A stretch of DNA of 64,000 nucleotides from Naegleria gruberi. Its lineage: Eukaryota. Every line of letters starts with the position of its first letter. Positions within the stretch are counted from its first letter, which is position 1. The notes beneath the pieces are model-generated. The model was not told the DNA's origin. It saw only the letters and a program-made list of their open reading frames with translations, and searched no databases. A program made the position numbers and the translations under genes. The stretch lies in assembly GCA_000004985.1 (NCBI GenBank), contig GG738869.1. One strand, written 5' to 3'. Below are positions 12,655 through 34,371 of the stretch, piece by piece.

Positions 12655-12662
12655 AACATTAA

Positions 12663-13307
12663 TCATTTCATATCAATTCTATTACGCTCTTTTAAATAGT
12701 GATTTTCTGACTTAATTTCTCCACATACTGCAAAACAAGTTGCAAGAATAGCTGTTGAAATTGATCCAATTTCTAACATTGCCAACAAAACTTCATTAGG
12801 CAATTGCTCAGTCATCAAAGTATGAGGAAGTGTTTGAACAAATTCCAGTAAGCTTCTGGAATGATGAATTTGGATTTTAGTCTCATCAAAGAGTAATACA
12901 CCAGCGATTGCAATATTAACCACAACATCCAAACCATTTAAAACACTTGCAATGAAAAAAAGCTTACTTGCTTTTTTGGATTTTTCTGATTTGGATCTTT
13001 GATAATCAGCAAGACAACCTTGTAATGCTAAAATACCGCCAATCAAAGGCACTGATAGAATAATTCCTCGAGCAAATCTACTTGGAATTATCATACCCAT
13101 TCTCCACAATATTCTCAATCCAATAATTTCATACATTGATTCTTTCATTCGATGAAGAGGTTGCTTCTTATTATTTTGTTGATCATTTGTAAAATTAATA
13201 TTGGAAACTGAGAATTTTCTTTCTTTCGGAATCGTCCAGATAGTTAGTGCTGGATTTTTCTTTGAGATTAACCTATTAATAGGTATTAGGCATTTGAGTT
13301 TAATCAT
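12663..13307 (-). CDS. Hypothetical multi-pass membrane protein
   Basis: 214-aa ORF with an A-rich start context and several hydrophobic segments (IILSVPLIGGILALQG, LDVVVNIAIAGVLLF, ISTAILATCFAVCG). Confidence 0.5.
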   Translation of the reverse strand: MIKLKCLIPINRLISKKNPALTIWTIPKERKFSVSNINFTNDQQNNKKQPLHRMKESMYEIIGLRILWRMGMIIPSRFARGIILSVPLIGGILALQGCLADYQRSKSEKSKKASKLFFIASVLNGLDVVVNIAIAGVLLFDETKIQIHHSRSLLEFVQTLPHTLMTEQLPNEVLLAMLEIGSISTAILATCFAVCGEIKSENHYLKERNRIDMK

Positions 13308-13354
13308 TTTTTTAATCCAATTAATACACGTTATTACAAATTTACAATTTAAGT

Positions 13355-15214: not shown

Positions 15215-16875
15215 TTATTGTTCCATTTCTTCATCCTCAGGATCTTCTGAAAGATTAGATGGTTTAAAGATTGAATAGCCGTCAAGACTTGTTGTAATAA
15301 GCACATTTTGGAATTTTGGATGCCAGTGCACTTCCTTAATGTCAACTTGACCCATGTGTTCGAATAACAATTGTGGTGGGATTTCATTTCCGATTTCTTT
15401 TTCAATTTCTTCTTGTTCGGCATCTCTTTCGAGTGAGAGATCCCAAATTGTCACCTTATCAGAATCAGAAGCAGCCAATAACGTTGATTCAATTGGATTC
15501 CATTCTATTGATGTAATAGAATTCTTGTGATAAATAAATTGGCCAACTGGTTTCATAGGACTGCTATCAGAACATTGTCTGACGTCCCAAATACGAATAA
15601 CACCATCATCGTCACCACTTGCAATAAAGTAACTTGTGAGAGGATTCCAAGAAATAACGTTAACATCTGCCTTTTCACTAGCTTCAAAACTGAGAGCATG
15701 CTTTCTATTCTTTTTTCTTGTATCCCAGAATTTAATAGTTCTATCGCATGAACATGATGCAAACACACTGTCTTCACTTGGTGAGAATTGAAGATCCTCA
15801 ACACTTCCTGTATGTCCAACAAATGGTTTATCATAAATTCTCTTCCAAGTATGAACTCCACTATTTGTTTGCATATCCATAACGTTAATTTCACCATTAC
15901 AATCACCAGTAGCAAGTCTACCTTCCACACACTTCGACCAGTCCATAGCAAAACCTTCAGTAGTATGGAAATCGAAAGTTTGAATTGCCTTCTTACTCTT
16001 TGTAATAGATTTTAAGGAACTGGCCATATTTTCTTGTCTTAAAACTTGTGACATTTGTGTCAAGTCATAAATGTGAACCTTAGAGTCCTCACACCAAAAA
16101 CCAACAATATTTCTATTTTGTGGCATTGCTCTTACTCTATTAACATTACCAGTGATTGGAATAGTTTGGTATTCAAGTGATGGTTCATCATCCAAATTTT
16201 CATTATCATCATCTTCATCTTCAACGTCACTTTCATCTGAATCGTAACGTGTTTTGTACATATCGTAAGCTTTAATCATGTAACAATTCTTTTGAGGAAC
16301 AGTTTCATCAGTTTGCACACCCACAACAAAATAACATGACAATGGATAATTCATAGTATCGAGTGGTTGTGAAACAATATCAAAACTCAAAGCAGGCCAT
16401 TCATTTCTGATTTTGTAATTAATTTCGTAGGCCTTATTTTGAAAAGTTAATTCGAATTCTCCATCATTGTAATTCTCTCCAGGACGATAAATATCGGCTT
16501 TGGAATTTATACCTTCTCTATACTTTTCGGCTTCTTCCTCCTCTTCAATATATTGTTTTTCACTGTTTTGTACTTTCAAATTTAATTCATCCATCTTTTG
16601 ACGAAGTTCGGTTTCATCTCCTTCAAATTCATATTCACCTTCATCTTCATCAACGTAGTCTTCCGAATTTTCATCGTATTCATCTTCATATGGATCGCCT
16701 CTACACAAAATTTAATCATCATCATCTATGAAACTAAAAAAACCTACGCTGCATATTCGGCTCTATCTTCATGGTCTGATTCTTCATCAGATGAGTCAAG
16801 ATGTCTGACCACTCTCGATTCATTCTTACTTCCAGAAAAAGTGGCTACTTTACTTCTCTTCTTTGCGCCTGGCAT
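15215..16875 (-). CDS. GRWD1: Glutamate-rich WD-repeat protein (GRWD1/Rrb1-type ribosome-biogenesis chaperone), 537 aa
   Basis: Exon 1 is 16748..16875 (MPGAKKRSKV...). A 47-nt intron at 16701..16747 (GTAGGT..TGTAG). Exon 2 is 15215..16700. Acidic N-terminus followed by WD40 repeats (FASCSCDRTIKFWD, IASGDDDGVIRIWD, LAASDSDKVTIWD). Confidence 0.85.
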
Positions 16876-17004
16876 TTTTTATTGTCTTGTTGACTTCAAC
16901 AATTTTTTTCAAACTTTCATCAACAAGGCTTGTTGGAAAAGTGAAGTAAAATGTTGAACAAGAATAAAAATTTAAAAAAATTGAAAACACTTTAAATTCA
17001 AAAA

Positions 17005-18012
17005 ATGGTGACTACCAATAACAACAAGGAAACATCGGTCGCTTCAACAGAGAAGAAGCCAGTTGCTGTGACTACCAACAAGATTAGACAAAAGTTAAAG
17101 CAAATGAACAAACAAACAAAATCAACGGTTACAAATAGTGATAGTACCAATTCTAAATTCCACAACAAACAAAGAACTTTGATTTTATCTTCACGAGGTA
17201 TTCATGCTAAACATAGACATTTATTGAAGGATCTTCGTACCTTGTTACCTCACACTAAAACCGAAAGTAAATTCTCTAAAGAAGGAATAGATGAAGGAGA
17301 TTTGGTTAAAAAACTTCACAGACTTCAAAAGATTGACCACATTGCTGCTGCTTTGAAATGTCCAAATATTTTGTACTTTGAAGTTGATAAGGAATCAGCA
17401 GATACAGAATTGTTTTTATGGATGTCAAAGACTTCAACTGGACCTTCTATGAGATTTAAAGTTGAAAATATCAGTACTATGAATGAATTGAATCTTATCG
17501 GAAATTGTTTGAAATATTCAAGACCATTATTACATTTCGACAAAACATTTGACAATATTGAAGGCGAAGATAAGCTTACTCATCTCCCATTGATTAAGGA
17601 ATTATTAACACAAACTTTCTCTACACCACTTAATCATCCAAAATCAAAACCATTCTTTGATCACATGTTTGCTTTCTATTATTTGGATGGAAGAGTTTGG
17701 TTCAGAAATTATCAAATTGTTACAAAACAATCAAGCCAAGGAGTTGCATTGACTGGTTCCCAAAAACATGAATATTCTCTTGTTGAAATTGGACCTAGAT
17801 TTGTTCTCAAGTTGACTAAGATTCTCAATGGTTCTTTCGATGGTAGAGTTATTTTCAATAGTGATTCACACTTTGTTTCAAAGGCTGAAGTTCAAAGATT
17901 GGAAAGCATTAAACTTGACCTCGACAAGCAAAAAAAGACTGAAAAACACAGAAAGTACTTAGAATTGAGAAAGCCAGCTGATGCTGATGAAGTGAGTTCT
18001 GTTTTCAATTAA
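17005..18012 (+). CDS. BRX1: Brix-domain ribosome biogenesis protein BRX1
   Basis: 335-aa ORF. RTLILSSRGIHAKHRHLLKDLRTLLPHTKTESKF, GPSMRFKVENISTMNELNLIGNCLKYSRPLLHFD and VWFRNYQI are Brix-domain (BRX1-type) signatures. Confidence 0.85.
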   Translation: MVTTNNNKETSVASTEKKPVAVTTNKIRQKLKQMNKQTKSTVTNSDSTNSKFHNKQRTLILSSRGIHAKHRHLLKDLRTLLPHTKTESKFSKEGIDEGDLVKKLHRLQKIDHIAAALKCPNILYFEVDKESADTELFLWMSKTSTGPSMRFKVENISTMNELNLIGNCLKYSRPLLHFDKTFDNIEGEDKLTHLPLIKELLTQTFSTPLNHPKSKPFFDHMFAFYYLDGRVWFRNYQIVTKQSSQGVALTGSQKHEYSLVEIGPRFVLKLTKILNGSFDGRVIFNSDSHFVSKAEVQRLESIKLDLDKQKKTEKHRKYLELRKPADADEVSSVFN

Positions 18013-18167
18013 AAGTTTTTTCAAAAAACTGCTGTACTGATTTTTTTCAATATTCCCTAAAGCTCCTCACCTAAAGCAATAATAAGGACTTTGTGAGCGG
18101 ATTTTGAATGATATTGGAGCAAAATTTGTCGTGCCCAACTCAATTTTCCATCACTACAAGATATTAA

Positions 18168-18182
18168 TCACCGCGTTTCATT
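18168..18182. repeat. Left copy of an inverted 15-mer (TCACCGCGTTTCATT) with patchy extension to about 18212
   Basis: It is the exact reverse complement of 27780-27794. Further blocks match inward (TTGCTT, TTGTAAA). Confidence 0.5.
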
Positions 18183-18828
18183 TTGCTTTTTGTAATAAAA
18201 GTTGTAAAGTTATGACGTTGGATAGCTTTATAGAAAAAAATACCATCACCAACTGACAAACCAAAAATTATTACCTCCCAACAATAATTAGTAACATCAC
18301 ATCCTACCTCGTCTCTTAGGTTGAGTTCTTTTATAAGAAAGTTCTTTTCATGTAGAGGTGTTTTATAATTATTCCAAAATTGAAGTAATTGTTTTACTAC
18401 GAGGTAAACTCACAACAAATTCTCAAGGAGATGATGTTGTGTTTTGGGATGTAATGTTTCTTATTATGTCAGAAAACATCTAGTAAGGAATGATTTATTT
18501 AGAAGAAGAACAACAACAATATTTAGAAGATATAAAACCATCACTGTGGGCTGATGATTTTCAGCAATAATTTAGAGAGACCAAACAAAAAATGATTTAA
18601 TATTGCAACATACAAACACACCACTTCAGCACCAACAGCAAGTAATCGTCTATGGAAAACTTCATCAAAGAGGGTCTCCTTTTTTTCATCACTAAATTCT
18701 ATTGATGAAGCATCATGACTATATCCGAGGATTGTGAAACAACAACCAACAGCAGGCTTTTACGATGATTCCGCACATTTGAATGAAGTATTAGTTTAGA
18801 TCAACTGGTACTGAAAAGGAGAAAAAGT

Positions 18829-21170
18829 ATGCTGCTTGTTTGGCTCCTACCTCATCACTTGCTGTTGCTTTTTGTTATTTACTCCTGAATGCGTTGCTAT
18901 CTTATATATGATTGTGATGTGTTTAATTAATAAGTTGGAGTGGGAGCAGCAACAGGGTAATAAATGTAAGTACCTACGATTTATTTGAAATTTTACCTTA
19001 ATTCCATTTCATAATTGACACCATGGAACATTTAAGGTGAAATCTTCACCAAAATAATAATTTGAAATAGTCAGTTTTGGAAAATGATGTCAGAGAATTT
19101 GATATTTATGAGTGTAATCTTTTCACATTTCAATTTGGTTGGTGCTATACATTCCATCATCAAGACTTAAGGTCCTGCCATTAATTAGAAACTGTGATGC
19201 AAGAAATAGTAACTGTTGTTGATGGAACTGTTTTAGAAGATTTAGCAAGTATTAATGTTGTCTACACAACAGCAACTGTTGCCATCTAAATCCTTACAAC
19301 TCTGAAGGTGAATTCATTTTGAAATATGATCCTCCAAGGGAAACTATGTTCATTCTCACTGATTAAAAGCTGATTTTACCGTTTGATTTGAGTGTAGACA
19401 TTTACAATAGATGATTCTCTTACACATACAGAGGTGAAAGAGATGCACTGATGATGTTCTTTCAACTCTTCAGTTTTGACTCAAGTCAAATTGTCTATTC
19501 AGTGGAAGGTATGGATGAGTTATCTATATAGTAGACACTTATAACTTTAGAATTAGAAAGCTATCAATTACCAATAAGACTATCATATTTATTACTTATC
19601 GGTGGACAAGAAGAAGGAAAACTTTGGAAATGAATATTACTGATACTCTTGCTCAACCAACAGGACTTGCTTTTTTCAGAATTCTGAACATGCTTCAATT
19701 AACACCATTCCATATACATTGCCTACAAGTTTTACATCAAGATTGTCAATGATCTTACAATAATTGCAAGATCTAGTGCTCCACCAACTCCAGGTCTGAG
19801 TTAGCAGCTCCTGTTCCTACTCTCAATACAACTATTGCCCCAACAAGTATTGCAGTTGGTGAGGATGGAAAAGTAACACACCCTCAAAATGTTAACACCT
19901 GCTCCAACCTGAACAATTTTTGTCGTGGCTAATACTGGATAATATCGGTCCTATTGAGGATGATGGCTTGGCTATTAGTTCTTCATTTATTACTGTTTCC
20001 TCTGAGGAGATTATTCTTGCTGATTGTATGAACAATAGAATTAGAAAGATTTGTGGAGAGGGAGTCATTACTACCAGTGGCTAATGCCTATGACTAAGAG
20101 AGATGTTTGAAAGTAATTGACCTAACCTTTCATTTTGCGTATTGTATGGAATGAAATGTCTCTAGTCAAAGAAGTGTTTTTGAGAATTGTGAATAGTGCT
20201 TCAGTGATCGTTTGGGCTCTTGTTGATGGTAAGGAAATGAGTAGAGATATCAAAAAGATTGCATATGATTTTGCCTTCTTTACTATTGATGTTTCACAAG
20301 TTTGCCAAGGAATTGTAGTCATTCAAGTTATGTTAATATTCGTAAAAAAATTGAGAAAATGACTCTTTGCCACCTTGCTGATTTTCGAAGTGGTTTCTCA
20401 GCACCAAACTTTCACATCATCATCTAAACATCAATTTAGTAGTAATATAGTAATTTTTATTGGAGTATTTTCTTCATTATTTTGGAATTTATCTTCATGA
20501 TGAAAAATCACAAGTTGATGAATCATCAGAACATTATTGTTGTTTTCCATCAATATAATAATTTTATTTGTGGAAATTAATATATAGTAATGAAATTACA
20601 CTAAAATCTTCATCACCGTTGGATTTAATGGAAAAGTTGGAAAACTATTAATGTGGCATTGTTGGAAATGGACAATAGTATGATATAAAACTTTGTTTGA
20701 TCACTTTTCATCAAGTATTGATAGAGATAGGTACATGTGAATTTTGAAAACTAACATGAACATTACTCCATGTGTACTTCAACCAACTTGAATACAATCT
20801 TATAGAACTACTAGTACTATTTAAATCACGAATAAACACCATATTCATCATCAAATATTCGTCATCTTGTCGATTACGGAATTTCATTCCACCAGTGTTG
20901 ATTCGGGCCCAACAACAAAATATTAACAATAAAACAATTACCAATACTATTGTTTACATGTTTTATGTTAAATGATCGTAACGATCATCAAGATCATCCT
21001 GTTTTTATTGCATTTCTCATGATAATCAGAAATGTCACAGAGAGTGCCACATATCCATTCTACTCTCAATAAATAATAGTTCCTTTTTACACATGTGCAA
21101 CTTTGCTTATAAACATGATGAATTCATATATTAAAGACTCCAAAGGCTAGTATAATCCTCAATGTGATGT
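18829..21170 (+). pseudogene. 5' arm of a decayed NHL-repeat receptor paralogue (related to the intact gene at 30615..34371)
   Basis: A signal-peptide-like MLLVWLLPHHLLLLFVIY starts at 18829 behind an A-rich context. Stop- and frameshift-interrupted NHL blades follow. 19519-19566 reads VIYIVDTYNFRIRKLS (intact gene: NIYFIDYYNYRLRKLS). A frame-shifted VDKKKENFGNE matches intact GDGKNENNGDG. 19971-20081 reads ADCMNNRIRKICGEGVITTSG followed by TAA. 20772-20975 contains IFIIKYSSSCRLRNF. The 3' limit is approximate. Confidence 0.65.
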
Positions 21171-21329
21171 CTAATAATACCATTACAACTTAAAGATAAT
21201 TATCTTATAATTTCATTGAATATGAATTGAATTTGTAAATTGACATAAAACAGTGGTTTATTGTAATTTGGTTTAAAAATAGCTTTCTAAAGCACCTTGT
21301 TGTATCTTGTTGTGACATTTACTAAAAAA

Positions 21330-22385
21330 ATGGCAAAAGCACCAGCACAAATTGTTATGGAGAACAAATTGCGGAAATCATTAACATTAAAACAATTCAT
21401 AGAATTATCCAAGTCTACAAGAAAAAGGAGATTAGATAATCTTCGTAAGAAATTCTTTAATTCAAATTTATTTAAATATTCTTGGAGTAAATGGCGAGAT
21501 GCTATTATCGGAACAAACAATTCAATCCAATATTTATTAAAACAAAGAAAAAACATAAAAAATAATTTATCAACATCTACAATTGATACAATAATTCAAC
21601 AATTAAAAGAGGAAAGGAACAAATCTACAAAAAAAGAATCCAAAAAAGATTTTGAAAAAAAAATTAATAATTTATTACAATCTAAAAATTTATTCAAAAT
21701 CAATGTTAATTTGATATTATGTAGTAATTTGGCTAATACTATTCAACTAATGTTTTTAAGAAATATACTTCCCGAAAATACCACTACTGAGGTAACCAAT
21801 ATATTGGATAAAATTAACCAAAGAAGATCAAAGGAAAATTATTATATAGGAAGTTGGGGAAAGAGTTCTTCTTTTCTATTTAAAACTAATGACACTATTT
21901 TTAATGAATTATCTTCTCAATTTATTAAAATTATTAATTTATTAAAAAATTATGTTTTGGAAATATTGAAATTTGGAAATAACAAGATGAGGAAATTCTT
22001 AGAAAAATACAATAGTAGTGATTTTTTATCAATTTATCCGACAGTGTGTTTTAATTTTTTGGATAAATCTGTAGATGAAAATAGAATTCTACATATTCAT
22101 CCGGATAAGGAAGACACTGGAACTAGTCTAATTTTTTACTTTGGAAAGTTTAAAGGTGGAGCAATCTCATTTCCTGAATTAAATTTTAAGCTTATGGTTC
22201 AATCAGCAGATGTTTTATTGTTTGATGGTAAGAATAATTTACATGCTGTTGAATCACTTCATGGTAAAGATGATGTTAGATATTCCGTTGTATTCTTTGC
22301 TCATAAAGCAGACTTGGGTAAAACTAGTTATCCCATGAATAGAGGAGAAGTTATGAAAGGTATTAAGAATAAAATCAATAATTAA
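21330..22385 (+). CDS. TET/JBP-family Fe(II)/2-oxoglutarate dioxygenase (NgTet-like 5-methylcytosine oxidase candidate), 351 aa
   Basis: The track start at 21297 is TTG; the true ATG is at 21330 (aaaaaaATG). The C-terminal core reads HIHPDKEDTGTSLIFYFGKFKGGAISFPELNFKLMVQSADVLLFDGKNNLHAVESLHGKDDVRYSVVFFAHK. It carries the HxD ... H ... R pattern of the double-stranded beta-helix. It parallels my recollection of Naegleria Tet1 (HKD...LFYFGNF...GDVLFF.G...H...R...VYFAHK). The N-terminal half is Lys/Asn-rich. Confidence 0.8.
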   Translation: MAKAPAQIVMENKLRKSLTLKQFIELSKSTRKRRLDNLRKKFFNSNLFKYSWSKWRDAIIGTNNSIQYLLKQRKNIKNNLSTSTIDTIIQQLKEERNKSTKKESKKDFEKKINNLLQSKNLFKINVNLILCSNLANTIQLMFLRNILPENTTTEVTNILDKINQRRSKENYYIGSWGKSSSFLFKTNDTIFNELSSQFIKIINLLKNYVLEILKFGNNKMRKFLEKYNSSDFLSIYPTVCFNFLDKSVDENRILHIHPDKEDTGTSLIFYFGKFKGGAISFPELNFKLMVQSADVLLFDGKNNLHAVESLHGKDDVRYSVVFFAHKADLGKTSYPMNRGEVMKGIKNKINN

Positions 22386-22439
22386 ATTTTAAATAATTAT
22401 TTAAATAATTTTTATAAATAATTTAATTGTATTAAAAAA

Positions 22440-23760
22440 ATGTCTCCACACTTTAACCTCGAATTTTATTCGAGAAGCACAACAGTAATAGATGAAAGCA
22501 CTCTCGGTGGGCTTGATTTGATAATAACACACTTATACATCCTCTTGTAGGAGTATAATTAGTGTTGTTGTTGTGAGTTGAGGACGTTATTTTAATTCCT
22601 TTTCCCTTCTTCCAAAGTTTCCTGTTCAAACTTTGTTGCTTCCGTAAATCATATTATCAACAGGAAAGATCATTTAACTGCGAGCATCGTTGTTGGATAC
22701 AAACTATGCATTGACAATTCTTTTAATTATCTTGAATGTTTGGTAATTGATGGCAATGTTCATATAATCAACTCTCACCAAAGAAGAATTCTAAAATATA
22801 TCTAATGATCAGGCTGTTGATTTTCAACAACATACAGGTATTCGGAGCTATTGTAAAATAATTGTTTTACTTTGATGATTCAAATGGTTTTCAACAACTA
22901 ACATAATTCTTATCCATCTTGCAAAAAAAGAGGATACCATGACAGCAATCAACTTATATCAATATTGAAAAATCATTAGGAAATTATTCAGAAGTAGCAT
23001 GCATTGTAATTGTTGCGTTCAAAACATTTCTCAACATTAAATTCTTTCTCCACAATCAAACCCTGCTCAGCAACAATCAGAAGAGGAGCCATCTTTTAAT
23101 CTAACTTGCCATCTATGTTGAAGGAATGTACATTTAGAAATCAGTGATGTTCACCCTGAATGTGATGGATCTTTTTCTGGCTACTTGTATTGGTTGCTCC
23201 AGTAATTGCACATATGGAGGCTCTTTTAATGTTTCCAATAACCAAACTATGCTGGTGATTCCACTCCCAACCAAAACCCTATCAAAAAGAATTCTTCTAT
23301 ACAACTAGTATGAGTCATAGAGCTGTTGTCTTTCGTCCACTTTTAATAATAATATATGGTATGCTTTTGTTCAGGCTGTAATGTTTCGAGTGCAATTCAA
23401 CACCAGTGTTTTCATTCCAACCATGATTGGATCATATCTCCAAAGAGGACACTGGGTATTATTACTATTTAAAGTTGGCTACTAATAGTGAAATCTACTT
23501 GTTCGATCCAATGTTGGATGCCAAGTTCACTAGTGCTGAGCTGGCTATTGATATTTCAGATATCCTTTTTGTTTGTTGTCACTACCACCCTATTATTCAA
23601 CTTCTAGGTTTACGTTTCAAGAATCATGGGTTTATTTGGTTTAAGATGTTATGTTTCAGTATTCACGTAAATATGATGCAAGGAGGACACTTATTGCTGC
23701 TGTGGTGGTAATAGTAGCATTACCTTAGGTGTTGTAGTGTATACTACTTCATCATCTATT
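22440..23760 (+). pseudogene. 3' arm of the same decayed NHL/EGF receptor paralogue
   Basis: 22506-22547 reads GGLDLIITHLYILL followed by TAG (intact gene: NLALIDHNLYILCD). 22740-22802 reads LVIDGNVHIINSHQRRILKYI followed by TAA (intact: GDFLITETNSHLVRRVSKG). 23158-23184 reads ECDGSFSGY, an EGF-like Cys repeat remnant. About 23690-23750 encodes a hydrophobic IAAVVVIVALPLGVVV-like transmembrane remnant. There are many in-frame stops. The order of remnants matches the intact gene. Confidence 0.6.
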
Positions 23761-24134
23761 AATACTTATTCTCCAATTACTCAAACAAAGACAATTTCAA
23801 TCAACATTCACTATGTCAGTGCTTAATTATTCCAAGTTGTACTAAAACAACATCACTAACAAGGTGCTAAACAACTATGCTTTCCATTTCAACGCAGAGG
23901 CATATGTCTTGCGTTTGGGGCAGAGATTTAGTGCTTGAATAGTGGTTAAACAACAATGGATGGGCATTTTGGCAACTGGTTTTCAGTAGCTTCACATTCA
24001 TGTTGTTTGACTTAACAAACACTTTGGCTGCAATCTATTCACTCTTTATCCATCATTTATTCATCATTTACACCAATACTGTATTGTTTACATTTTGTAT
24101 GCTAGCTGGTTATTATTATTAATCATTAAAAAAA

Positions 24135-26864
24135 ATGGGAGTAGCGACACTTTTTACCAAAGCTGACGTTTTAAATTCCCACAACATCAAAAAGCAAAAA
24201 GAAACCAAACGTCCTGCCTTTGAAGGTGATAATGATAGATCGATTGTGGCGGCAATTAAAAAAACAAAACAACAAGCATCCAACGACTTTGAGTATTACA
24301 AGACATACAAAGAAACAGATTTCACTAATGAACAGAATTTTAGTTCAATAATTTATCAGATAATGCTAGTTCTATTGCCCTATTTTGTTTTTAAAATAAC
24401 CTCAGGATTATTAGATTTTGAATCAATATTATTATACTTTCTAGTCTCCACAAAAAAAGGCAAAGATTTATTAGCACAAGCCAATCTATATAGTACTGAG
24501 GGTGTTTCTTGGTGTGAAGCAATAGTATTTAAAGCAATTTGTAATGCAGATATAAGTATAGGGAGTTATGGTAGATTTATTGGTTGTTTAGAAGAATCTA
24601 GTAAATCAGACACATCCAGAAATAAGAAAAAGGCAAGACATTTTTTACCATCACTCTCTACAATAACAAAATATTCAAGTAGTTTACATCAAGTATTAGA
24701 TATCAATCATGCTGCAGATAGCGAAGGACTTTATTGGAGAATATTTTGTTCATCCATAGAACTTAATGACAGGACATTCAGATATGCAACGCTTCAAAAT
24801 GCAGAATTGTTTTTATTCTCATTTATTCGCTACCATGAAATGATCATAGGAGAATATATCTTCTTTGTAAAGATAAGATGTACTGTTGATGGTTCACCTT
24901 TAGAGGGAGCCTGTACTGCGTATGATATTGTATTAATTCATCCCAAGATAGATCCATTTTGTGCTCGTAATTATATTTCTGTTATTATTGCCGAGCCTAA
25001 AGAGGAAATAGCGTTCAAATTAAACATCTGGGATTTCTCTCGCCAGTTAATGCGTATCACACAGTTGAAATACTCTGTACCTAATGAAGAAACAAGAATT
25101 ATTCCTGTAAAATTTATTACCAACCCTGATAAGGGCGCCTTTAACAAAATTATAGATGTGGAAAAGGTAACGCCAATTTGTGATCCTATTTTTAATTTGG
25201 TAAATCTTTATTGCCTATTATCAATGATTTTCAATACAGATAATTCCTTAATACTACCTCTAATTCCAACAATAAGAGGAGATTGTAATAATGATAGCAA
25301 CAAAGCAAAAGGACAAGCAAATCTAGCAAAGGTTATGGAAATTAAAAAGATTATGCCTGAAACGTTACCTTATTACCACAACATTCCAACAAAATCCCAA
25401 ATATTTACTGATTTTCAATTAGATGAAGATTCTATTTTTTTAATTGAAAAATTTATCATTAAGAAACCTCAAACAGATTATTTATGTTGTATGTTTTGTT
25501 ATTTAACTAAACAAACAAAAAGAATAGCATTGAAGTATCCTGATTTGTGTACATGGAAATGGTACAGATCAAACGAAAGCTCAAGTAATGCTTTAGGCTG
25601 GCCTTTTAAAAGTTTTTCATGGTGTCTTTCGCATGATATAAGAGCCTGTGGTCAGAATCTTATTGAAGAAGAGGTGGGACAAATTGAAGAAGATAGACAA
25701 TATTTTGCCAAATTATTCAGTTCTGAATCTCCAATTGCCTCTTTGAAATGTGGTTCTAAAAAGCTAATTAATGAACAACTAGATGCCAACCTTGTTTCTG
25801 AATTTGAGTTTTGTCAATGGAGTGTATTTGAATTAAAGGTGAAAGAAGAAAAAAAGAAAAACAAAACAGGAACAGAGCTACGAACTAGTTCAGTTAAACT
25901 AATCTATGATCAGATTTTGTTTAAACAAATAGACAAAATTATAATGACAATAGATGTTTGGTATCCTCATTGGCTCACATATCGAGAAAACAAACAATTA
26001 CAGGTTTGTCAATCCCTTAACAATAATCAATCATTTGAAGATTGTACAAATGAAGAACACTCCAAGCGAGGAACATACAAACCAAAAAACTATGAACATA
26101 TATGGAAAGCTCTTCAAAAAACATACATTACTCTTCGCCAACCAAAATCTAAATGGTTAGAATGGAAGAAAACTGGATATCAAGAGCCATTGCTAATATT
26201 TAAGAATTTAAATAAGGTTTGGATAAAAGATATTTTAGGAAGAATATCAGAATATTTACACATTCATCAACATGCAGATATTGTGTTCGATGAAGTAGAA
26301 GAATCATTCGTAACAACATCAAACATTGGATCTGAATCTAAAAATTCTTTAAGAAGGAAGCGTCATGTTTCATTTGGAGTTAATGGTGGTTTAAGACATC
26401 CTTGTGATGATTCTTTATATTATGACAGCAAAAGAATTCTTAATGAATTGAAGATCCTTGCTGAGACTCCTAATATTATTGCAAGACAAGATGAGATCAA
26501 AAGAAAACAAGTTTCCGAAAAAGAAAAACTCACACAACCAAAAAAGAAAAGAAAATCTGAAACTACTACACAACCCAATCCAATAAGCTCAACCAATTCC
26601 TCAATTAATTATATCAATCCTTCCCTATTACAACCTCTACTTCCAGATAATTTTAATTCAATTACATTACACAATCAACACTCCTTCTCACCTCCTATAT
26701 ATATTCATCCTCTTCAACTCCAACCTCCACTAACTAACAATTTAACATTTTCTCAATTCAATCCTTCTCAAAATTCCAATAACCAACCAACATCTCCTTA
26801 CCAACCATCATCTCCATTTTCATTCTTTTCATCCTCCAATCCATCACCAAACTCCTTTTTATAA
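24135..26864 (+). CDS. 909-aa protein with DDE-transposase-like motifs and a Cys cluster (candidate CACTA/Plavaka/KDZ-like transposase or domesticated derivative)
   Basis: Intact ORF with aaaaaaaATG context. IRCTVDGSPLEG (D252, nt 24888-24890) is followed by a hydrophobic strand and ..IIAEPKEE... This parallels the DG(F/V)xPF ... WPV ... IPGPK block of EnSpm/CACTA-type transposases as I recall it. Second acidic candidate: FITNPDKGAF (D332). Cys/His cluster: CCMFC...C...C..H....C at aa 451-505, followed by SHDIRACGQNLIEEE. The tail is low-complexity and Pro/Ser/Asn-rich. The family assignment is tentative. Confidence 0.4.
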   Translation: MGVATLFTKADVLNSHNIKKQKETKRPAFEGDNDRSIVAAIKKTKQQASNDFEYYKTYKETDFTNEQNFSSIIYQIMLVLLPYFVFKITSGLLDFESILLYFLVSTKKGKDLLAQANLYSTEGVSWCEAIVFKAICNADISIGSYGRFIGCLEESSKSDTSRNKKKARHFLPSLSTITKYSSSLHQVLDINHAADSEGLYWRIFCSSIELNDRTFRYATLQNAELFLFSFIRYHEMIIGEYIFFVKIRCTVDGSPLEGACTAYDIVLIHPKIDPFCARNYISVIIAEPKEEIAFKLNIWDFSRQLMRITQLKYSVPNEETRIIPVKFITNPDKGAFNKIIDVEKVTPICDPIFNLVNLYCLLSMIFNTDNSLILPLIPTIRGDCNNDSNKAKGQANLAKVMEIKKIMPETLPYYHNIPTKSQIFTDFQLDEDSIFLIEKFIIKKPQTDYLCCMFCYLTKQTKRIALKYPDLCTWKWYRSNESSSNALGWPFKSFSWCLSHDIRACGQNLIEEEVGQIEEDRQYFAKLFSSESPIASLKCGSKKLINEQLDANLVSEFEFCQWSVFELKVKEEKKKNKTGTELRTSSVKLIYDQILFKQIDKIIMTIDVWYPHWLTYRENKQLQVCQSLNNNQSFEDCTNEEHSKRGTYKPKNYEHIWKALQKTYITLRQPKSKWLEWKKTGYQEPLLIFKNLNKVWIKDILGRISEYLHIHQHADIVFDEVEESFVTTSNIGSESKNSLRRKRHVSFGVNGGLRHPCDDSLYYDSKRILNELKILAETPNIIARQDEIKRKQVSEKEKLTQPKKKRKSETTTQPNPISSTNSSINYINPSLLQPLLPDNFNSITLHNQHSFSPPIYIHPLQLQPPLTNNLTFSQFNPSQNSNNQPTSPYQPSSPFSFFSSSNPSPNSFL

Positions 26865-26897
26865 AATAAAAGGAATAATTTAAATTATAATAATTGT

Positions 26898-27659
26898 TTA
26901 ATATTTATTCCATTTAACAGATTCATCAAGCATAGAGCAGAAATAATCAAATTCAATTCTAATCATCTTCTCTTCAGGTTTGTAAATTAATTTAAATTGA
27001 TTAATTCCAAATTTCCATAAAATACCATCATGCTCCCATTTAAATGCATACCACTTATCACTAAACAAAGGAGGAAGGCTATAATTTCCAGCAAACAACC
27101 AATGATATGTTATCTTTGGAACTATTCTTCCTTCCCTTGCAATGCCACCCTCAATCAACATCTCTTCTTTTAAAATGCTATATGGTTTTGCCTTTTGTAT
27201 TTGATAATCAAAGAATAGCTTTGCTTCGTGATCATCTGTTACAGAAACATAATGTTGATGATGCCACTTGACATTATGGGTTGTATCTGGCTGAGCATTT
27301 CTAATAACTACCTCCTCAATAGTTCTCGGAAGTACCTTTAGGTATCTTGTTGCATAATATTCATCAGAATATTTTTCATCCATTATCTCACGCAGTGTTA
27401 TTGTTGGTAGGGAAGTATCAAAAAAGTATTCAAGTTGTTGTCTTTTCTCTAATGGTATGTTCACTTTCTTACTCTCTTCACTGCCTTCAAGAATGTTTGT
27501 TACTTGGCGTTTAGCTGTTTTCAAATCATCAACCTTCTCTACAACAAAACGTATTTTGTTTGTATTGTTATTCTTCTCCAACGATTTATTCATAGCTACC
27601 CTCTTACTTTTGCTCAACCTGTATACTTCAAACGTTACTTCTGTTTTGTTGGTGACCAT
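26898..27659 (-). CDS. Hypothetical protein (orphan), 253 aa
   Basis: Uninterrupted ORF with an ATG start; no recognisable motif. The Trp/aromatic-rich C-terminal half (WYAFKWEHDGILWKFGINQF) suggests a folded domain. Confidence 0.45.
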   Translation of the reverse strand: MVTNKTEVTFEVYRLSKSKRVAMNKSLEKNNNTNKIRFVVEKVDDLKTAKRQVTNILEGSEESKKVNIPLEKRQQLEYFFDTSLPTITLREIMDEKYSDEYYATRYLKVLPRTIEEVVIRNAQPDTTHNVKWHHQHYVSVTDDHEAKLFFDYQIQKAKPYSILKEEMLIEGGIAREGRIVPKITYHWLFAGNYSLPPLFSDKWYAFKWEHDGILWKFGINQFKLIYKPEEKMIRIEFDYFCSMLDESVKWNKY

Positions 27660-27779
27660 AGAAAATACTTGTTTGTTTTGTTTTGATTTTGTTGTTGCTC
27701 ATGTTGTTGTTGATATGTGGTGTTGTTGATGTTATTGTATTTTTTTTTACGTGAGTTTACAAATTGAAAAACAAGCAAG

Positions 27780-27794
27780 AATGAAACGCGGTGA
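27780..27794. repeat. Right copy of the inverted 15-mer (AATGAAACGCGGTGA) with patchy extension from about 27748
   Basis: It is the exact reverse complement of 18168-18182. It lies about 120-135 nt upstream of the minus-strand gene starting at 27659. Confidence 0.5.
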
Positions 27795-28045
27795 AATTAC
27801 GATCAGGATTTGAAAAAATATCAAAAAAGACGTTACATAACAAACAAACCTCGTAACCGATCATCAACACTTGTACAACTTGACTCTTAACAAGTATTGT
27901 TGTTGTGGGAAGATTTTAATCTTCGTAACAAACTTCATCATCATCCGACTTTTTTAAAAACTCTCTTATCATCATCAACAAGAAGTGATTTTGTACTAGT
28001 ATTGTATTTTGGTAGTTTAATTATAATACAAGAAGATTAACCATC

Positions 28046-30412
28046 ATGGGAGGAGAAACTGAACCATCTAACGAAGCTCTAATATCACCAATTACACCTT
28101 TTTCAACCATTATTCCAAATACCTATTCTCAACAACAAGCTAATTTTGATTCAAGTACAATATCCGAAGAGAGGAATGATGGTGATAGTATCAATAGAGT
28201 TACCTCTCTTCCACCATTACCATCATTAGACTCTCCCAAGAAAAAACCTCTTCCATCCATTAACACTCTTTCTCCACCAAGAAAGACTTCAAAACCACTC
28301 CCACCAAGACCAACACAAACCTCTACGGAAATTAATAATTTAGTATTTTCTCATCCCTCTGCTATGAATACAACTTATTCTTCCGATAATTTTACCACCA
28401 ACAATCCATCCTATCCATCCACACCTCCAAAAGTTTTGTTCCGAGATTATACTGAGAATAATTTAGAGCCAGCTTCCAGTATTAATACATATAATTACGA
28501 GTTTGCAAATATAAACCCTGAACCAATATCACATATATTTACAAATGTAGATGGTAGTATGCACCGTAGTTCCTCCTTTGCGGGTACTTTGGTCAACAGA
28601 CGTTCAATTCCTTCGAATGTTGGTTTAAACTCTATACAGGAGGAAGCTATGATTCGTACTCAAAGTTATGACAAATTTAAATTGGACGAATTAAAGAAAC
28701 AAGGATCGACTGCTGCTGGCAATAATAACGGAAATAATAATAATAAGAGACATAAGAAAATATTTTATAATACTGAATTTTTGGAGAAATGCGGATTTAG
28801 TAATAATTCTATTGAACAGCAACAAATCAAACAACTGAAACAGGATGAACTTCAAGAGGAACAGATTCGTAGAATGCATTCTGAACAAGAACAAAAAATG
28901 AAGCAAATGGAATTAGAAGAGTTGGCTCTCGTCAACCGAACTTTACAACAAGAGTTCAGTTTTTCAGAATTTTTAACTTCTCAACCAAAATACTCATGGA
29001 GTGACTTTTTTGCCCATAACAAGAATGCATTTAGTTTAATCAGAGCTATGGCATCTCAATGGTCATGGGGAGAAATGACCTTGGGACTCGAATATTTTGC
29101 AAGAAGTAAGGGCAAGATGAAACGTGATTTTACTCAATTCAAATTAGAGTCAGATTTAGAGAGACTGCCAGCTTCAAACGTTGAGGTTTGGAGACATTAT
29201 GCACGTTTAACCTATCAAGTTTTTAGAGACTCGATAGAGGACATACCAAGGAACACCCGTTTGGAACTTCACAAAATTATTGCCTACGATAGAACTCAAC
29301 AAGCCATGAGACCTGGATATTTTCTGTGTGTGGACGACTATACAAAATCGGTTCTGGTTATTTTTAGAGGAACAAAATCATTTAGTGATATTCTGACTGA
29401 TTTGCACTGCTCCTCTATTCGTTACAAACATGGATATTGTCACAAAGGAATTTTGACAGCTGCTCAATATTTTGATTCGAACAAATTCATCAAGGAAGTG
29501 GTTAAAAGAACTCTTGAGCATCATCCAGGATACAAATTAAGGTTGCTGGGTCATAGCTTGGGTGGTGGTACTGCAGCTATATTGTCCACTATGTGGAAGA
29601 AAGACTTTCCTGATATTCACTGTTATGCATTTGCATGTCCACCAGTTTTATCACAAATTTTAGCTGACGAATGTGCTGACTATGTTACAAGTTTTGTAAA
29701 TGGTGATGATTTTGTAACAAGATTATCAATGACAGCTGTTCACGAATTGAGAAAGGAAGTACAGAACTATCCTTGGAAGGAGGAAATGATGAAAGATATT
29801 CAAAACTCAACACTTGGAAAGTTTGCAGCTGGAGTTAAAAATTATGCATCTGGTTTATTTAGTGGATTATTTGGAGGTAGTAAGAAGGCAGATGTAGTAG
29901 AGCCAATCATAGAAGTTAAAAAGGATGTAATCAAGACAGAACCTATCACCACAAACATTACAACAATAAGTACAGGAGAAGATGCCAAAAGAATTGAGTA
30001 CGATCAATCTAATTCATCGATGGAGGATCAAGATATTTCCAGTTCAAGTAATGCTGATGATGTGCAGAGTACAGATGAGCCTCTTTCCTCAATCTCACAA
30101 AGCACTAATGATGATGTTTTCCCTTCTTCAGGCTCAACTGTTAAAAGAAAAGTTTCCAAAAAACCAAAGAGGAACCCAGATTCTCCACTGATTATTAATG
30201 ATTATGAAAATCTTGTTGTGACTCTCTTCCCAGCTGGTTGTGTCTATCAAATTAGAAATATTGATGACACTGTGTACATAAAAAAGGCCAATAAGGAAGA
30301 CATTACTTCCATAATTTTGAGTGACAGCTACAAGGAAGATCACAGAATGATCAACTATTTATGTAATCTTGATGCTTACAATCCAATAACAACCGAGAGT
30401 AGTGTAATATAA
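28046..30412 (+). CDS. Class 3 (fungal-type / DAG-lipase-like) lipase with a long disordered N-terminus
   Basis: 788-aa ORF. FRGTKSFSDILTDL ... LLGHSLGGGTAAIL (GxSxG nucleophile elbow) ... FVNGDDFVTRLS are lipase_3 signatures. Confidence 0.8.
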   Translation: MGGETEPSNEALISPITPFSTIIPNTYSQQQANFDSSTISEERNDGDSINRVTSLPPLPSLDSPKKKPLPSINTLSPPRKTSKPLPPRPTQTSTEINNLVFSHPSAMNTTYSSDNFTTNNPSYPSTPPKVLFRDYTENNLEPASSINTYNYEFANINPEPISHIFTNVDGSMHRSSSFAGTLVNRRSIPSNVGLNSIQEEAMIRTQSYDKFKLDELKKQGSTAAGNNNGNNNNKRHKKIFYNTEFLEKCGFSNNSIEQQQIKQLKQDELQEEQIRRMHSEQEQKMKQMELEELALVNRTLQQEFSFSEFLTSQPKYSWSDFFAHNKNAFSLIRAMASQWSWGEMTLGLEYFARSKGKMKRDFTQFKLESDLERLPASNVEVWRHYARLTYQVFRDSIEDIPRNTRLELHKIIAYDRTQQAMRPGYFLCVDDYTKSVLVIFRGTKSFSDILTDLHCSSIRYKHGYCHKGILTAAQYFDSNKFIKEVVKRTLEHHPGYKLRLLGHSLGGGTAAILSTMWKKDFPDIHCYAFACPPVLSQILADECADYVTSFVNGDDFVTRLSMTAVHELRKEVQNYPWKEEMMKDIQNSTLGKFAAGVKNYASGLFSGLFGGSKKADVVEPIIEVKKDVIKTEPITTNITTISTGEDAKRIEYDQSNSSMEDQDISSSSNADDVQSTDEPLSSISQSTNDDVFPSSGSTVKRKVSKKPKRNPDSPLIINDYENLVVTLFPAGCVYQIRNIDDTVYIKKANKEDITSIILSDSYKEDHRMINYLCNLDAYNPITTESSVI

Positions 30413-30614: not shown

Positions 30615-33600
30615 ATGTCACAACATCAAACAACACTACAACTACTCATTTCCCTGTTTTTATTTTTGATTGTTGTTCAATGCACAGCATCAACAATGGA
30701 ATACAATACTAGTCTATCATTTGGTATTGATACACTGGTTGGCTATGATCCGAATAATGGAAATAATCTTCCTTCAATATATGCCAATTTGAATCCCAAT
30801 AATTTGACATTTGGCACGAATACAAAGATAATGTTCATGTATGATGGTGTTAGGAATGCCATCATGAAACTTGATCTGAAAACAAATCTGATTTCGAAAT
30901 TAATTGATTTAGAATATAGAGCGCTCTCAATATTAGAAACTAGAAATGGAATTTTATTTACAGATGCTCAAGGAAGGAATATTAAAATGTTGGCCAATGA
31001 TTCAATTTCTATTGTGGCAGGAACATTAACAACAGGATATTCAGGTTTGTTGATCTTGGGATGATTTTATTTTAAACTAATATTTGATATTAAAAGGGGA
31101 TGGAATTGCAAACGAAACGAAACTAAACTCTCCAAAGGGATTAATTGAGGATGGTAATGGAAATATTTATTTCATCGATTACTATAATTATAGATTGAGG
31201 AAATTATCAGGTAATATGATTTCAACAATAGCTGGTGATGGAAAGAATGAAAATAATGGAGATGGAGGATCAGCTCTAAAGGCCAACTTGAAAAATCCTT
31301 CCAATCTGGCACTAATTGACCACAACTTATACATTTTATGTGATACAGCAATAAGGAGAATTGATTTAATCACAAGTAAGATTTACAGTTTCTCAGTTGA
31401 AAGTCCATTCAAATTTACTGGAATTTTCCAAGCCAATGGAACAATTTTTGTTCACTCTGCTACTGCAATTGGTAAAATTCAATCCAATCAGAAGATTTCT
31501 ATCATTTCCGGATCAGCATCTGTATCGGGTCCTTCTGTAAATAATATTCCAGCAATTGATGCCTTATTCAAACAAATAAGTTCAATTGGGGTACTTTCGT
31601 CTGAGTTAGGGGATGTTATTTATGTTTATGATTCTTCAAATAATGATATTAGGGTTATTAATGAGACTCGTTTTATTAATCTGTTGGCTGGTGTTAAATC
31701 TTTGAAAGCAAATGTGGATTTATCGGCTCCTTATTTTATTTCTAATGATCCAATTGGACTTGCTGAGCTGATTAATGGTGATTTAGCCTTTTCGCATTCA
31801 GGTGGAATTGCCAAATATTCCAATGGATTGATAACAAACATAGTCGAATCTTCTAGCCCAATATTAGGAATTGCTTTCTATGAGAAAGAGGATGAGCTCT
31901 ATTATGTGGATTCGAACTCAAAAATTAAAAAGCTCAAAGATGGAGAAACGATACACGTAGCAGGAGCATCGAATGGACAAAATGCAGACAACATTCCAGC
32001 ATCAAAAGCATTACTTTCCTCTCCGTATGGAATTTCAATAGATCAAAGCAATGGAGACATTTATTTCACTGAACAATCAGGAAATAGAATACGAAAGATT
32101 TCTCAAGGAATTTTAACAACAGTTTGTGGAAATGGTCAAGCAGGAGATTCTGGAGATAAAGGGGAGTCCATTAAGGCACTAGTGAATAATCCAAGTGGAA
32201 TTCAGTTTACACAAAATGGAGAGATTTATTTCGCTGATTCAGGTAATAATCGTATTCGAAAGATTGTGAACGGTACCATTAACACAGTTGCTGGGGCAAA
32301 TGTTTGTAATGCTAAGGAAGGATCAAAAATGGCCACTGAAACGGTGTTGAGAAATCCAACTTTCGTTTATGTCTATCCGAATGGTGATTTTCTCATAACA
32401 GAAACAAACTCTCATTTGGTGAGAAGAGTTTCAAAAGGATTTATTTACACTATTGCAGGTACTGGACTATCTGGAGAGGGACCTGATTCAGTTCTGGCTC
32501 TTCAATCAGCTTTAACAAGTCCCAAGTCAATCATTCATTCATTTTCAATGAAACGAGTTGTACTAGTTGATAAGACCAATAGAGTGAGAATCTTAACTCC
32601 TTATTGTGAAGAGGGATATGTATTAGATGTTTATGGAGCATTCTGCATTCCTTTCTGTTTTGGAATTCTTGCAAATGATACAAATACTTGCTCTGGAAAG
32701 GGAGAATGTTCTTCATTCAACAGATGTAATTGTGCAGCATCCTATGGAGGAGAACAGTGTAATATTTCTAAATGTTTTGGAGTATTGGCAACTGACTCAA
32801 AGACATGCAGTGGAAGAGGAAAATGTTTGGATGGAATTTGTGATTGTGGAGGTAAATTCATTGGAACTAATTGTGAAATTCCCATTTGCTATGGAAAAGC
32901 TTCAAACGAGAGTGAAGTTTGTGGCGCTCATGGAAAATGTTCTAATTGGAATACGTGCGAATGTTTGGATAAGTATTCAGGCAGTTCGTGTCAATATCCT
33001 ATTTGTTTCGGCATTGCTTCAACCAGCCCTACTGTTTGCAGTGGAAGAGGAGTATGTACAGGACCAGATTCTTGTAATTGTCAATCTGGATCTTCTGGTA
33101 CTATTTGTGAAGTATCGAGAGAAGAAATTGACAAACAGAATCGAGAGAGAATAATCATAATAATTAGCTCAGTTTCAGGCTCCTTATTCTTATTATTCTG
33201 CTGTATTATTTGGACAATATCGGTATTCATATTCACCAATAGAAAGCTCAACCAACGACACAATGCAGAGCTAGATATGGAAAAGAAACTTCTTGAATTT
33301 GAGTTCAATGATTCACAATCTTCAGTCAGGGAATCAGTCTACCTCTTTTCACAACACCAGAAACCATACTTGATACCAATAGAAGATATTACATTTGTTA
33401 AAAAGATTGGAATTGGAGGATTTTCAAATGTTTATTTGGGAAAGTGGAACCAGTCGTTTGTGGCTGTCAAATCTGTTGAAAATCAAGACGATAGAGCTGA
33501 TGATGTATTTGAAAAAGAAGCACAAACTTTGTGTGCCCTCAAACATCCAAATATTATCACTTTTTATGGAATTTCATTTTCAGAGAGCAGAAAATTGCTG

Positions 33601-34371
33601 ATTGTGGAATATTTTGAAAAGGGAAGTTTAGATAAGTACATTGAAGCACTCACTACAAGGAAGATTAATTGCTCTCTAGAGAAAAAGATCAATTACTTGT
33701 TGCATATTGCTAATGGAATGGCCTATCTTCACTCGTACAAACCTAATCCTATTGTTCACAGAGATTTGAAACCAGCCAATGTTTTAATGTCAGAGAATGG
33801 AATTCTCAAGATATGTGATTTTGGATTGAGTAGAAGTTTGAATTACGAAACCAAGTCAGCCATGACATCCAATATTGGAAGTTTCTATTATTTGTCTCCA
33901 GGTAAGTTGTTTTTGGGTAGTTTATAATAATTTGATCTAAATCTGAAAGAAATGTTAAATGGAAGCAATCAAAAGAAATATGCAACTGCTTTGGATGTGT
34001 TCAGTTTTTCAATCATTGCTTGGGAATTACTTTTTGAAGAGGGAAATCCATACGATTATTCCAACAGAACAAAAGTATTTTATACAATGAATGAGGAAAA
34101 ACAGCTTCGATATGAAAAACTCAGTCCATTTAATGTTCCAACTCTTGTTTCTCAAGGCCTGAGACCACCAATTCCATTCGATTCGTCCGAAAGTTGTAAA
34201 GATTGGTGTAGCTTATTCGCAACCTCTGAAAAAGAACATTATCTCATTATTTTACAATTAACTGATTTGATTAAGCGTTGTTGGGATGAAAGACCCGAAC
34301 AGAGACCTTCATTTATAGAGATTGTGAACATATTATCTCAATTCGAAACTTATTTCTCACATGATTTGTAA
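30615..34371 (+). CDS. Receptor-type protein kinase, 3 exons, 1218 aa: signal peptide, NHL repeats, four tandem EGF-like Cys repeats, TM helix, TKL-like kinase domain
   Basis: Exons 30615..31044, 31097..33901 and 33950..34371. Introns 31045..31096 (GTTTGT..AAAG) and 33902..33949 (GTAAGT..GAAAG). The junctions restore TTGYSG|DGIANETKLNSPKG and YYLSP|EMLNG. NHL blades read NxIRKI...G.I.T.AG. Transmembrane helix IIIIISSVSGSLFLLFCCIIWTISVFIF. Kinase motifs GIGGFSNVY, VAVKSV, HRDLKPANVL and DFGLS. Confidence 0.85.

Follow-up and report, generated by a model that had tools for sequence, protein, structure and literature searches.

A 64,000-nucleotide (nt) stretch of Naegleria gruberi DNA (contig GG738869.1, assembly GCA_000004985.1; here called the window) contains an open reading frame (ORF) of 909 amino acids (aa) that we consider likely to encode the transposase of an undescribed cut-and-paste DNA transposon of heterolobosean amoebae, which carries a TET gene as cargo. 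The lineage is probably related in kind to the CMC (CACTA/EnSpm-Mirage-Chapaev) and Transib transposons, membership in that family being unproven at the sequence level. An earlier note on the window, made from the sequence alone, had read the ORF as an RNase-H-fold transposase of the CACTA/EnSpm-Plavaka kind into which a zinc module is inserted, and had proposed a fold search, a copy count, and a search for terminal inverted repeats (TIRs). The ORF is indeed intact, as the note had stated: in the ORF listing it starts with ATG and is free of stops over all 909 codons (Table 1), a length far beyond chance in DNA of 31% GC.

The position of the ORF was compared with the corresponding region of other amoebae. 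In Naegleria lovaniensis, the genes for a WD40 protein, Brix, a lipase, flavodoxin reductase, and prismane follow one another, and the gap between Brix and lipase measures 495 bp. The gene order is the same in N. gruberi, yet Brix and lipase are 10 kb apart. In Willaertia magna, Brix and lipase are also linked, with two unrelated genes between them. This comparison places the 909-aa ORF, a gene for a TET/JBP-type dioxygenase, and an ORF of 253 aa on a lineage-specific insertion. The TIR search proposed in the note was successful: a perfect repeat of 15 bp, TCACCGCGTTTCATT on the left and AATGAAACGCGGTGA (plus strand) on the right, sits at both borders of the insertion and is the longest exact inverted match between positions 18013-21330 and 27600-28046. 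In the entire window it occurs only at these two sites, even if up to 2 mismatches are allowed. Imperfect inverted similarity runs inward for about 40 nt, and the gapped end-to-end alignment of the two ends scored 21, compared with a maximum of 13 in the null set. The element thus has the termini CACCGCG...CGCGGTG. Excising the TIR-bounded block leaves 156 + 252 = 408 bp between the flanking genes, which is near the 495 bp of N. lovaniensis; the non-coding DNA of the two spacers is too diverged to place the exact empty site.

The TET/JBP-type gene of the insertion codes for a 2-oxoglutarate-Fe(II) dioxygenase of 351 aa. In a phmmer search of the PDB, it matched NgTet1 (5cg8/4lt5) with an E value of 3e-21 over 222 aa. 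The protein has the HxD motif (as HPD), the distal H, and the R. It shares these residues with NgTet1 (4lt5, 5cg8), of which it is a paralogue with roughly 30% identity as judged by eye, encoded inside a TIR-bounded element. The Pfam model Tet_JBP was matched with an E value of 3.4e-5 and 23.6 bits, which falls short of the gathering score (34.9). The TET proteins of the N. gruberi and W. magna elements are 29% identical over 175 aa (E of 2e-19 by blastp and 6e-17 by tblastn), and in both N. gruberi and the W. magna locus L012 the gene is located inside the TIRs. Judged by eye, the stretch ...NNLYKIKWKSDKVKIH... in the N terminus of the W. magna protein resembles a chromodomain.

The 253-aa partner, encoded convergently with the 909-aa ORF, is homologous to the gene directly upstream of the family member in the W. 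magna loci L006 and L012 (E values of 7e-14 and 6e-14, respectively), and the L006 partner links it weakly to the counterpart at L007 (E of ~1e-4). It also matches aa 76-222 of a N. lovaniensis protein, P0003, with an E value of 1.5e-10. The partner is, therefore, found beside a family member in N. gruberi and at three loci of W. magna. In N. lovaniensis, it is fused to the family member, which speaks for joint action of the two proteins. No domain was found in the partner by searches of Pfam or the PDB. A match to EXO84 (E of 0.006) was discounted, since it involved a poorly aligned, Lys/Asn-rich N-terminal part and only 2 to 3 of 4 sequences.

The gene for P0003 (locus L001, positions 10001-13765, PYSW02000061.1) is intact, contains introns, and encodes 1159 aa; the protein fuses the partner domain, two fungal-type Zn2Cys6 domains, which lie N-terminal to the 909-like region, and the 909-like core. 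At L001, neither recognisable TIRs nor a nearby TET gene was found. P0003 may be a domesticated or a self-sufficient version of the system.

Evidence for mobility came from W. magna. The partner at L006 has a member with at least 90% identity on another contig, L012 (JBEGDK010000009.1), and positions 9840-15084 of L012 correspond to positions 7789-13190 of L006, a copy of 5.2 kb with 98.5 to 99% DNA identity. The borders of this similarity are sharp to the base and start exactly at the TIR, and the flanks are unrelated. The left border of L012 reads CACGGGGTGGT, and its exact reverse complement ends at position 17873 of L012. The inverted ends, CACGGGGTGG(T)...CCACCCCGTG, are of the CAC...GTG type, and the chance of the G+C-rich 10-mer CACGGGGTGG recurring in DNA of 25% GC was estimated to be ~3e-4. 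The unit bounded in this way contains the partner, a 909-like gene, and a TET/JBP gene, so that the three genes are linked in two genera; the partner ATG is 161 nt inside one TIR, the TET gene ends 80 bp before the right repeat, and the L006 copy is without the last 2.8 kb of the unit.

Most copies of the gene are decayed, and they decayed independently. The in-frame stops of the 909-like genes differ between L012 and L006, and a consensus of the two genes gives an intact ORF of 776 aa. The third copy in W. magna, L007, is interrupted by a stop at the first Asp motif and by a frameshift, and a metagenomic copy, L003, has one stop. The three W. magna copies are on three contigs, and the members in N. 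lovaniensis and W. magna are at unrelated loci. A contig of 957 nt from ERZ929261 (L002) matches positions 23862-26924 of the window and derives from a close relative of N. gruberi, with 85 to 96% DNA identity. Positions 23862-24030 are kept at 87%, but most of the 909-aa gene is gone as a result of deletions corresponding to positions 24031-25941, 26021-26148, and 26486-26620. At least one close relative can thus do without the gene. Together, the occurrence at several loci, the near-identity of copies, the sharp inverted-repeat ends, and the independent decay are the signature of a family of DNA transposons.

At L012, the 8-kb element has a repeat of 149 nt (85% identity, same orientation) on either side: one copy, at positions 8153-8300, is 1.5 kb away on the left, and the other, at positions 18907-19052, is 1.0 kb away on the right. 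Just past the repeat is a gene whose product has Chromo, SprT-like, and HMG-box domains. The element may have landed inside another repeat.

The 909-aa protein is on record as a "predicted protein" of N. gruberi NEG-M (EFC44211.1 / XP_002676955.1 / UniProt D2VG55, NAEGRDRAFT_67858). Word-indexed homology searches with the protein and with the family alignment gave no match, not even to the protein itself. The self-match was missing because the exact sequence is clustered under an unrelated representative of 54 aa that is annotated as "MAG: phage integrase N-terminal SAM-like domain" (MEW8053228.1). With aa 1-790 as the query, an exhaustive phmmer scan across 1.84 billion protein representatives yielded 7 relatives: a metagenome fragment with 91% identity (P0001), the 1159-aa protein of N. 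lovaniensis (P0003; E of 3e-19), two fragments from W. magna (P0004 and P0005), and three fragments from metagenome or read-archive assemblies (P0002, P0006, and P0007). Members of the family are at differing loci and share 22 to 29% identity. The conserved core spans about aa 145-770. A low-complexity tail of ~120 aa, which begins near aa 790 and is rich in P, S, N, and Q, has no homologue. A Pfam scan of the 909-aa protein found nothing at E values up to 1, and no transposase model was hit at E values up to 10 when 7 family members were scanned. The copy count proposed in the note gave a single copy for N. gruberi in the protein collection and several loci for W. magna. No paralogues were found within the 64-kb window, and pattern scans of JGI metagenomes for the family were without a match.

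Conservation was counted in full-length homologues rebuilt from their loci, with up to 6 sequences, or 5 where the coverage is shorter. Invariant positions are D252, E290, P331-D332, C452, C455, R478, N485, C497, H500, F528, W609, W674, Y707, E734, and N750; E511, H709, and H713 are nearly so. All peptide strings quoted in the earlier note were found, namely, IRCTVDGSPLEG at aa 247, AYDIVLIHPKIDPF at aa 262, NPDKGAFNKII at aa 330, CCMFCYL at aa 451, WCLSHDIRAC at aa 496, and NLIEEE at aa 508, and most of the residues it had singled out proved to be conserved: D252, P331-D332, C497, and H500 in 6/6 sequences and C452 and C455 in 5/5. R478 and N485 of the Cys/His cluster are likewise present in 6/6. 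C497-x2-H500 may supply the remaining ligands of a CCCH zinc site or make up a further zinc site.

The note had proposed an acidic residue of NLIEEE as the third of the catalytic triad. This residue, E511, is conserved (E in 5 sequences and D in 1), is located 11 residues past the invariant C497-x2-H500 pair, and falls within a predicted helix (aa 498-514, pLDDT of ~60). As a catalytic residue it is probably the wrong choice, and E734, which is invariant (5/5), is favoured. Its placement, 20 residues after H709-x3-H713 (GSESKNSLRRKR), gives the order C(2)C...H(3-4)H...E that is seen in the CMC/Transib group, so the triad is probably D252/D332/E734, as judged from conservation and order. H709 and H713 are each H in 5/6 sequences, the exception being the degraded W. 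magna copy L007. RAG1 carries C727/C730, H937/H942, and E962 in ...ASEGNESGNKLFRR. By analogy, H709/H713/E734 may be likened to H937/H942/E962 of RAG1, a likeness that is not statistically significant.

A single-sequence AlphaFold model of the 909-aa protein was uninformative (predicted local distance difference test [pLDDT] of 35). A model of aa 60-790, built with an alignment of 11 rows, reached a pLDDT of 48.6 and a predicted template modelling score (pTM) of 0.35, with better segments (pLDDT of 60 to 82) at aa 209-249, 299-329, 499-529, 599-629, and 649-699. The predicted order of elements is a strand at aa 244-251 leading to D252, a strand at aa 261-268, helices at aa 290-307, a strand at aa 321-330 leading to P331-D332, and further helices. 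D252 and D332 would, hence, be at strand ends in a beta-beta-(beta)-alpha-beta-alpha pattern, with a helix behind D332. RNase-H-like transposases have the order beta1(D)-beta2-(beta3)-alpha1-beta4(D)-alpha2, and the predicted secondary structure matches it. Two fold searches by different methods gave RAG1L, Transib, and RAG1 at the top, from a model with a pLDDT of 48.6. In the Foldseek search, RAG1 was first (6oeo_A; E of 0.026, probability of 0.66) and appeared twice more in the top five; further down the list were UvrC endonuclease and RNase HII, which also have RNase-H-like folds.

CMC, Transib, and RAG1 enzymes cut DNA at CA/CAC termini, and the amoeba elements share the 5'-CAC...GTG-3' termini of EnSpm. 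The candidate motifs of the amoeba family also follow the order D...D...C(2)C...H(3)H...E of the CMC and Transib transposases, with C452-x2-C455 as the invariant C(2)C (5/5) and with H(3)H and E as putative equivalents. Carriage of a TET/JBP gene is a trait in common with some fungal EnSpm and Plavaka elements. Large transposase genes linked to TET/JBP genes and moving together with them are also known from the Kyakuja-Dileera-Zisupton (KDZ) elements of basidiomycetes. Unlike CMC and Transib transposases, the family has an extra invariant pair, C497-x2-H500, and E290; it occurs in Discoba (Heterolobosea) and has its own 253-aa partner without a known domain. Compared with KDZ, the fold matches point to RAG1/Transib instead, the hosts are amoebae and not fungi, and the protein gave no Pfam match to the KDZ transposase or to CxC domains. 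In the literature, the order C(2)C...H(3-4)H...E defines the CMC/Transib (CMCT) group, whose termini are CAC..GTG in EnSpm and CA..TG more generally (PMC12730594). TET/JBP genes are carried by fungal KDZ and by some fungal EnSpm and Plavaka families; KDZ elements have target site duplications (TSDs) of 7 to 8 bp, and Kyakuja elements have CA..TG termini and no TIRs (PMC12730594). Mobility, TET linkage, fold rankings, and conserved motifs thus speak for the main part of the earlier reading, an RNase-H-like transposase of the CACTA/EnSpm-Plavaka kind with a zinc module. At the sequence level, no match to Transposase_21, Plavaka, KDZ, or other Pfam models was found.

Several observations weigh against a CMC/Transib-like transposase in a TET-carrying element. 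Neither Pfam transposase models nor PDB chains, RAG1 and Transib chains included, showed similarity to the family, even when the PDB was searched with the family profile at E values up to 10. The distance from D332 to the CxxC is 120 aa, compared with about 19 aa in RAG1. The family hidden Markov model (HMM) aligns DYxHIxxH to NYFHKTLAH of RAG1 with a score no better than that of shuffles. The juxtaposition of D252, D332, and E734 in space is hypothetical. An inverted repeat of 15 nt was reached in 4/300 shuffles, which corresponds to a nominal chance probability of ~0.01. CMC/Transib TSDs measure 2 to 5 bp, and the flanks of the amoeba elements fit a TSD of 2 bp (AA/AA in N. gruberi, if the T/A is counted in the TIR, and TT/TT in W. 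magna L012), a match that is weak with one complete copy per species in AT-rich DNA. The elements of N. gruberi and W. magna differ in how their genes are ordered and oriented, and only one copy was detectable for N. gruberi in the protein collection. Finally, no TET gene was found in up to 10 kb of DNA on each side of L001, L003, L006, and L007, i.e., of four of the six other copies. A TET linkage that is universal in the family was, therefore, rejected.

The single copy in N. gruberi may have arrived recently, be the last one left, or have been domesticated. If the gene were the domesticated, immobile descendant of a transposase with a role in the host, for example, as a nuclease or regulator linked to DNA modification together with TET, the following observations would fit: one detectable copy in N. 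gruberi, an ORF that is intact over 909 codons, all conserved residues kept in the proteins of N. gruberi and N. lovaniensis, and, in the latter species, an intact, intron-containing Zn2Cys6 fusion without recognisable TIRs. However, perfect TIRs of 15 bp are still present at the exact borders of a lineage-specific insertion, the gene is heavily deleted at the same locus in L002 and thus dispensable, neither N. lovaniensis nor W. magna has an orthologue at the syntenic locus, and family members at different loci are only 22 to 29% identical. We, therefore, regard domestication as rather unlikely. It is less probable still that the element is mobile while the 909-aa protein is an accessory zinc-binding protein or nuclease and transposition is carried out by the 253-aa protein or in trans. 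The matches to the RAG1/Transib fold would then be artefacts of a poor model. No fold score is strong alone, but one small family at the top of both lists would be hard to obtain by chance, which we take as moderate evidence for the fold.

The block could also be a piece of endogenised virus, or a gene island that arose by segmental duplication, with a fortuitous short inverted repeat. Endogenised viruses are common in amoebae, and insertions of this kind are methylated in N. gruberi (PMC12344493); the chance probability of the TIR and the ambiguous TSD would fit as well. Against this origin, the same three genes are enclosed by CAC...GTG inverted ends in two genera, near-identical copies in W. 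magna have sharp borders exactly at the TIR, and the block contains no viral hallmark genes; furthermore, a pattern scan of limited sensitivity found no relatives of the family in the IMG/VR viral contigs. We consider a viral or island origin very improbable.

If the 909-aa protein is the transposase, its RNase-H-like core would use two Asp residues, D252 at the end of beta1 and D332 behind beta4, and a distal Glu, E734 or alternatively E511. A zinc-binding insertion between the second Asp and the Glu would be formed by C452/C455 together with H709/H713 and/or C497/H500, an arrangement known from CMC, Transib, and RAG1 enzymes. The transposase, possibly guided by the partner, would bind the CAC-terminated repeats and cut and rejoin DNA at a two-metal site of the RNase-H type. 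The partner would probably aid in the recognition of the element ends or of the target, and the intact N. gruberi copy might still be active. The TET cargo could plausibly oxidise 5-methylcytosine (5mC), or T, on and around the element and thereby counter silencing by the host, in analogy to TET transposons of fungi (PMC12730594). In N. gruberi, 5mC marks repeats and young transposons, and 5-hydroxymethylcytosine (5hmC) was not detected (PMC12344493).

Table 1. Positions of the element, its genes, and its motifs in the window; the last four rows refer to W. magna locus L012.
Feature	Position	Strand	Remarks
Brix gene	17005..18012		
Whole candidate element, 9.6 kb	18168..27794	.	Between Brix and class-3 lipase genes
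Left TIR, TCACCGCGTTTCATT	18168..18182	+	156 nt after Brix stop; element proper from CAC at 18169
ORF-less left arm, 3.1 kb	18183..21329	.	No ORF >77 aa
24-nt motif, internal copy TTGAATTTGTAAATTGACATAAAA	21227-21250	+	~80 nt upstream of TET ATG
TET/JBP-type 2-oxoglutarate-Fe(II) dioxygenase gene, 351 aa	21330..22385	+	ATG at 21330; mechanical ORF start TTG at 21297
ORF-less spacer, TET gene to 909-aa ORF, 1.7 kb	22386..24134	.	
909-aa ORF, putative transposase	24135..26864	+	ATG start, no internal stop
D252 codon (VDGSP), candidate first catalytic Asp	24888..24890	+	Invariant 6/6; end of predicted beta-strand aa 244-251
P331-D332 codons (NPDKG), candidate second catalytic Asp	25125..25130	+	Invariant 6/6
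Cys/His cluster C452-x2-C455 (C(2)C), YPxL..W.WxR, C497-x2-H500	25488..25634	+	
E511 codon (NLIEEE), alternative third catalytic residue	25665..25667	+	E in 5, D in 1
H709-x3-H713...E734 (GSESKNSLRRKR), favoured H(3-4)H...E motif	26259..26336	+	
253-aa partner gene	26898..27659	-	Convergent with 909-aa ORF; ATG 134 nt inside right TIR
24-nt subterminal motif TTSAATTTGTAAAYTSACRTAAAA, copy TTCAATTTGTAAACTCACGTAAAA	27745..27768	-	11 nt inside right TIR
Right TIR, AATGAAACGCGGTGA on plus strand	27780..27794	-	252 nt before lipase ATG; element proper ends with GTG at 27793
Class-3 lipase gene (XP_002676956.1)	28046..30412		
W. magna L012 unit, 8,034 bp			
L012 partner gene	10001-10795		
L012 909-like gene	10837-13167		
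L012 TET/JBP gene	16720-17793		

The non-coding parts of the N. gruberi element showed further features. The stretches without ORFs, at 18.1-21.3 and 22.4-24.1 kb, are unusual for the N. gruberi genome; the window is gene-dense with long, intron-poor ORFs and has a mean GC content of ~33%, and no conserved remnants of protein-coding sequence were found in these spacers. A short ORF at positions 19920-20081 of the left arm has a weak match to NHL repeats (E of 0.16) and may derive from the NHL-kinase family as a captured or overrun piece. The 24-nt motif TTSAATTTGTAAAYTSACRTAAAA occurs just twice in the window, each time 80 to 110 nt upstream of an ATG, that of the TET gene in one case and that of the partner gene (at a distance of ~90 nt) in the other; it could be a shared promoter or binding site. 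The inverted pair formed by these copies (21227-21250 and 27745-27768) was rejected as a TIR, since it is the perfect repeat of 15 bp that sits at the borders defined by synteny, and is read instead as a repeat of subterminal or promoter-proximal type.

Two neighbouring genes are recorded for completeness. A gene for an NHL-EGF-protein kinase lies at positions 30615-33927 of N. gruberi, between lipase and flavodoxin reductase. In N. lovaniensis, lipase and flavodoxin reductase are adjacent and the NHL-EGF gene is on the other side of the block, which amounts to a second break of synteny. An ORF of 780 aa at positions 40677-43019 consists of 13 DUF4116 repeats (E of 1e-132); a DUF4116 gene is also found near the N. 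lovaniensis family member (L001), probably by coincidence in genomes rich in DUF4116.

In the literature searched, TET-carrying transposons were described only in fungi (PMC12730594) and none in Naegleria, an earlier mention in Iyer et al. (2014) being possible. A TET-transposon association in heterolobosean amoebae would show that such associations arise across very distant eukaryotes, and it could explain why Naegleria has multiple Tet-like genes, whose in vivo role is unclear. It would also add a branch from Discoba to the RAG1/Transib/CMC transposases, which bears on the age of the transposase design of the V(D)J recombinase type. The transposase escapes every sequence profile, its record says "predicted protein," and clustering hides it from routine homology searches. 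As a tentative extension, which we regard as possible, the family may represent a new lineage at the superfamily level that is related to RAG1/Transib, resides in Discoba, captured TET independently, and uses it together with the partner to erase its own methylation. If so, part or all of the Tet-like family of Naegleria, among them the enzymes that serve as biochemical tools, would be cargo of transposons and not part of the epigenetic machinery of the host. Combining a transposase with TET would then be a strategy against silencing that is ancient or has evolved repeatedly across eukaryotic supergroups.

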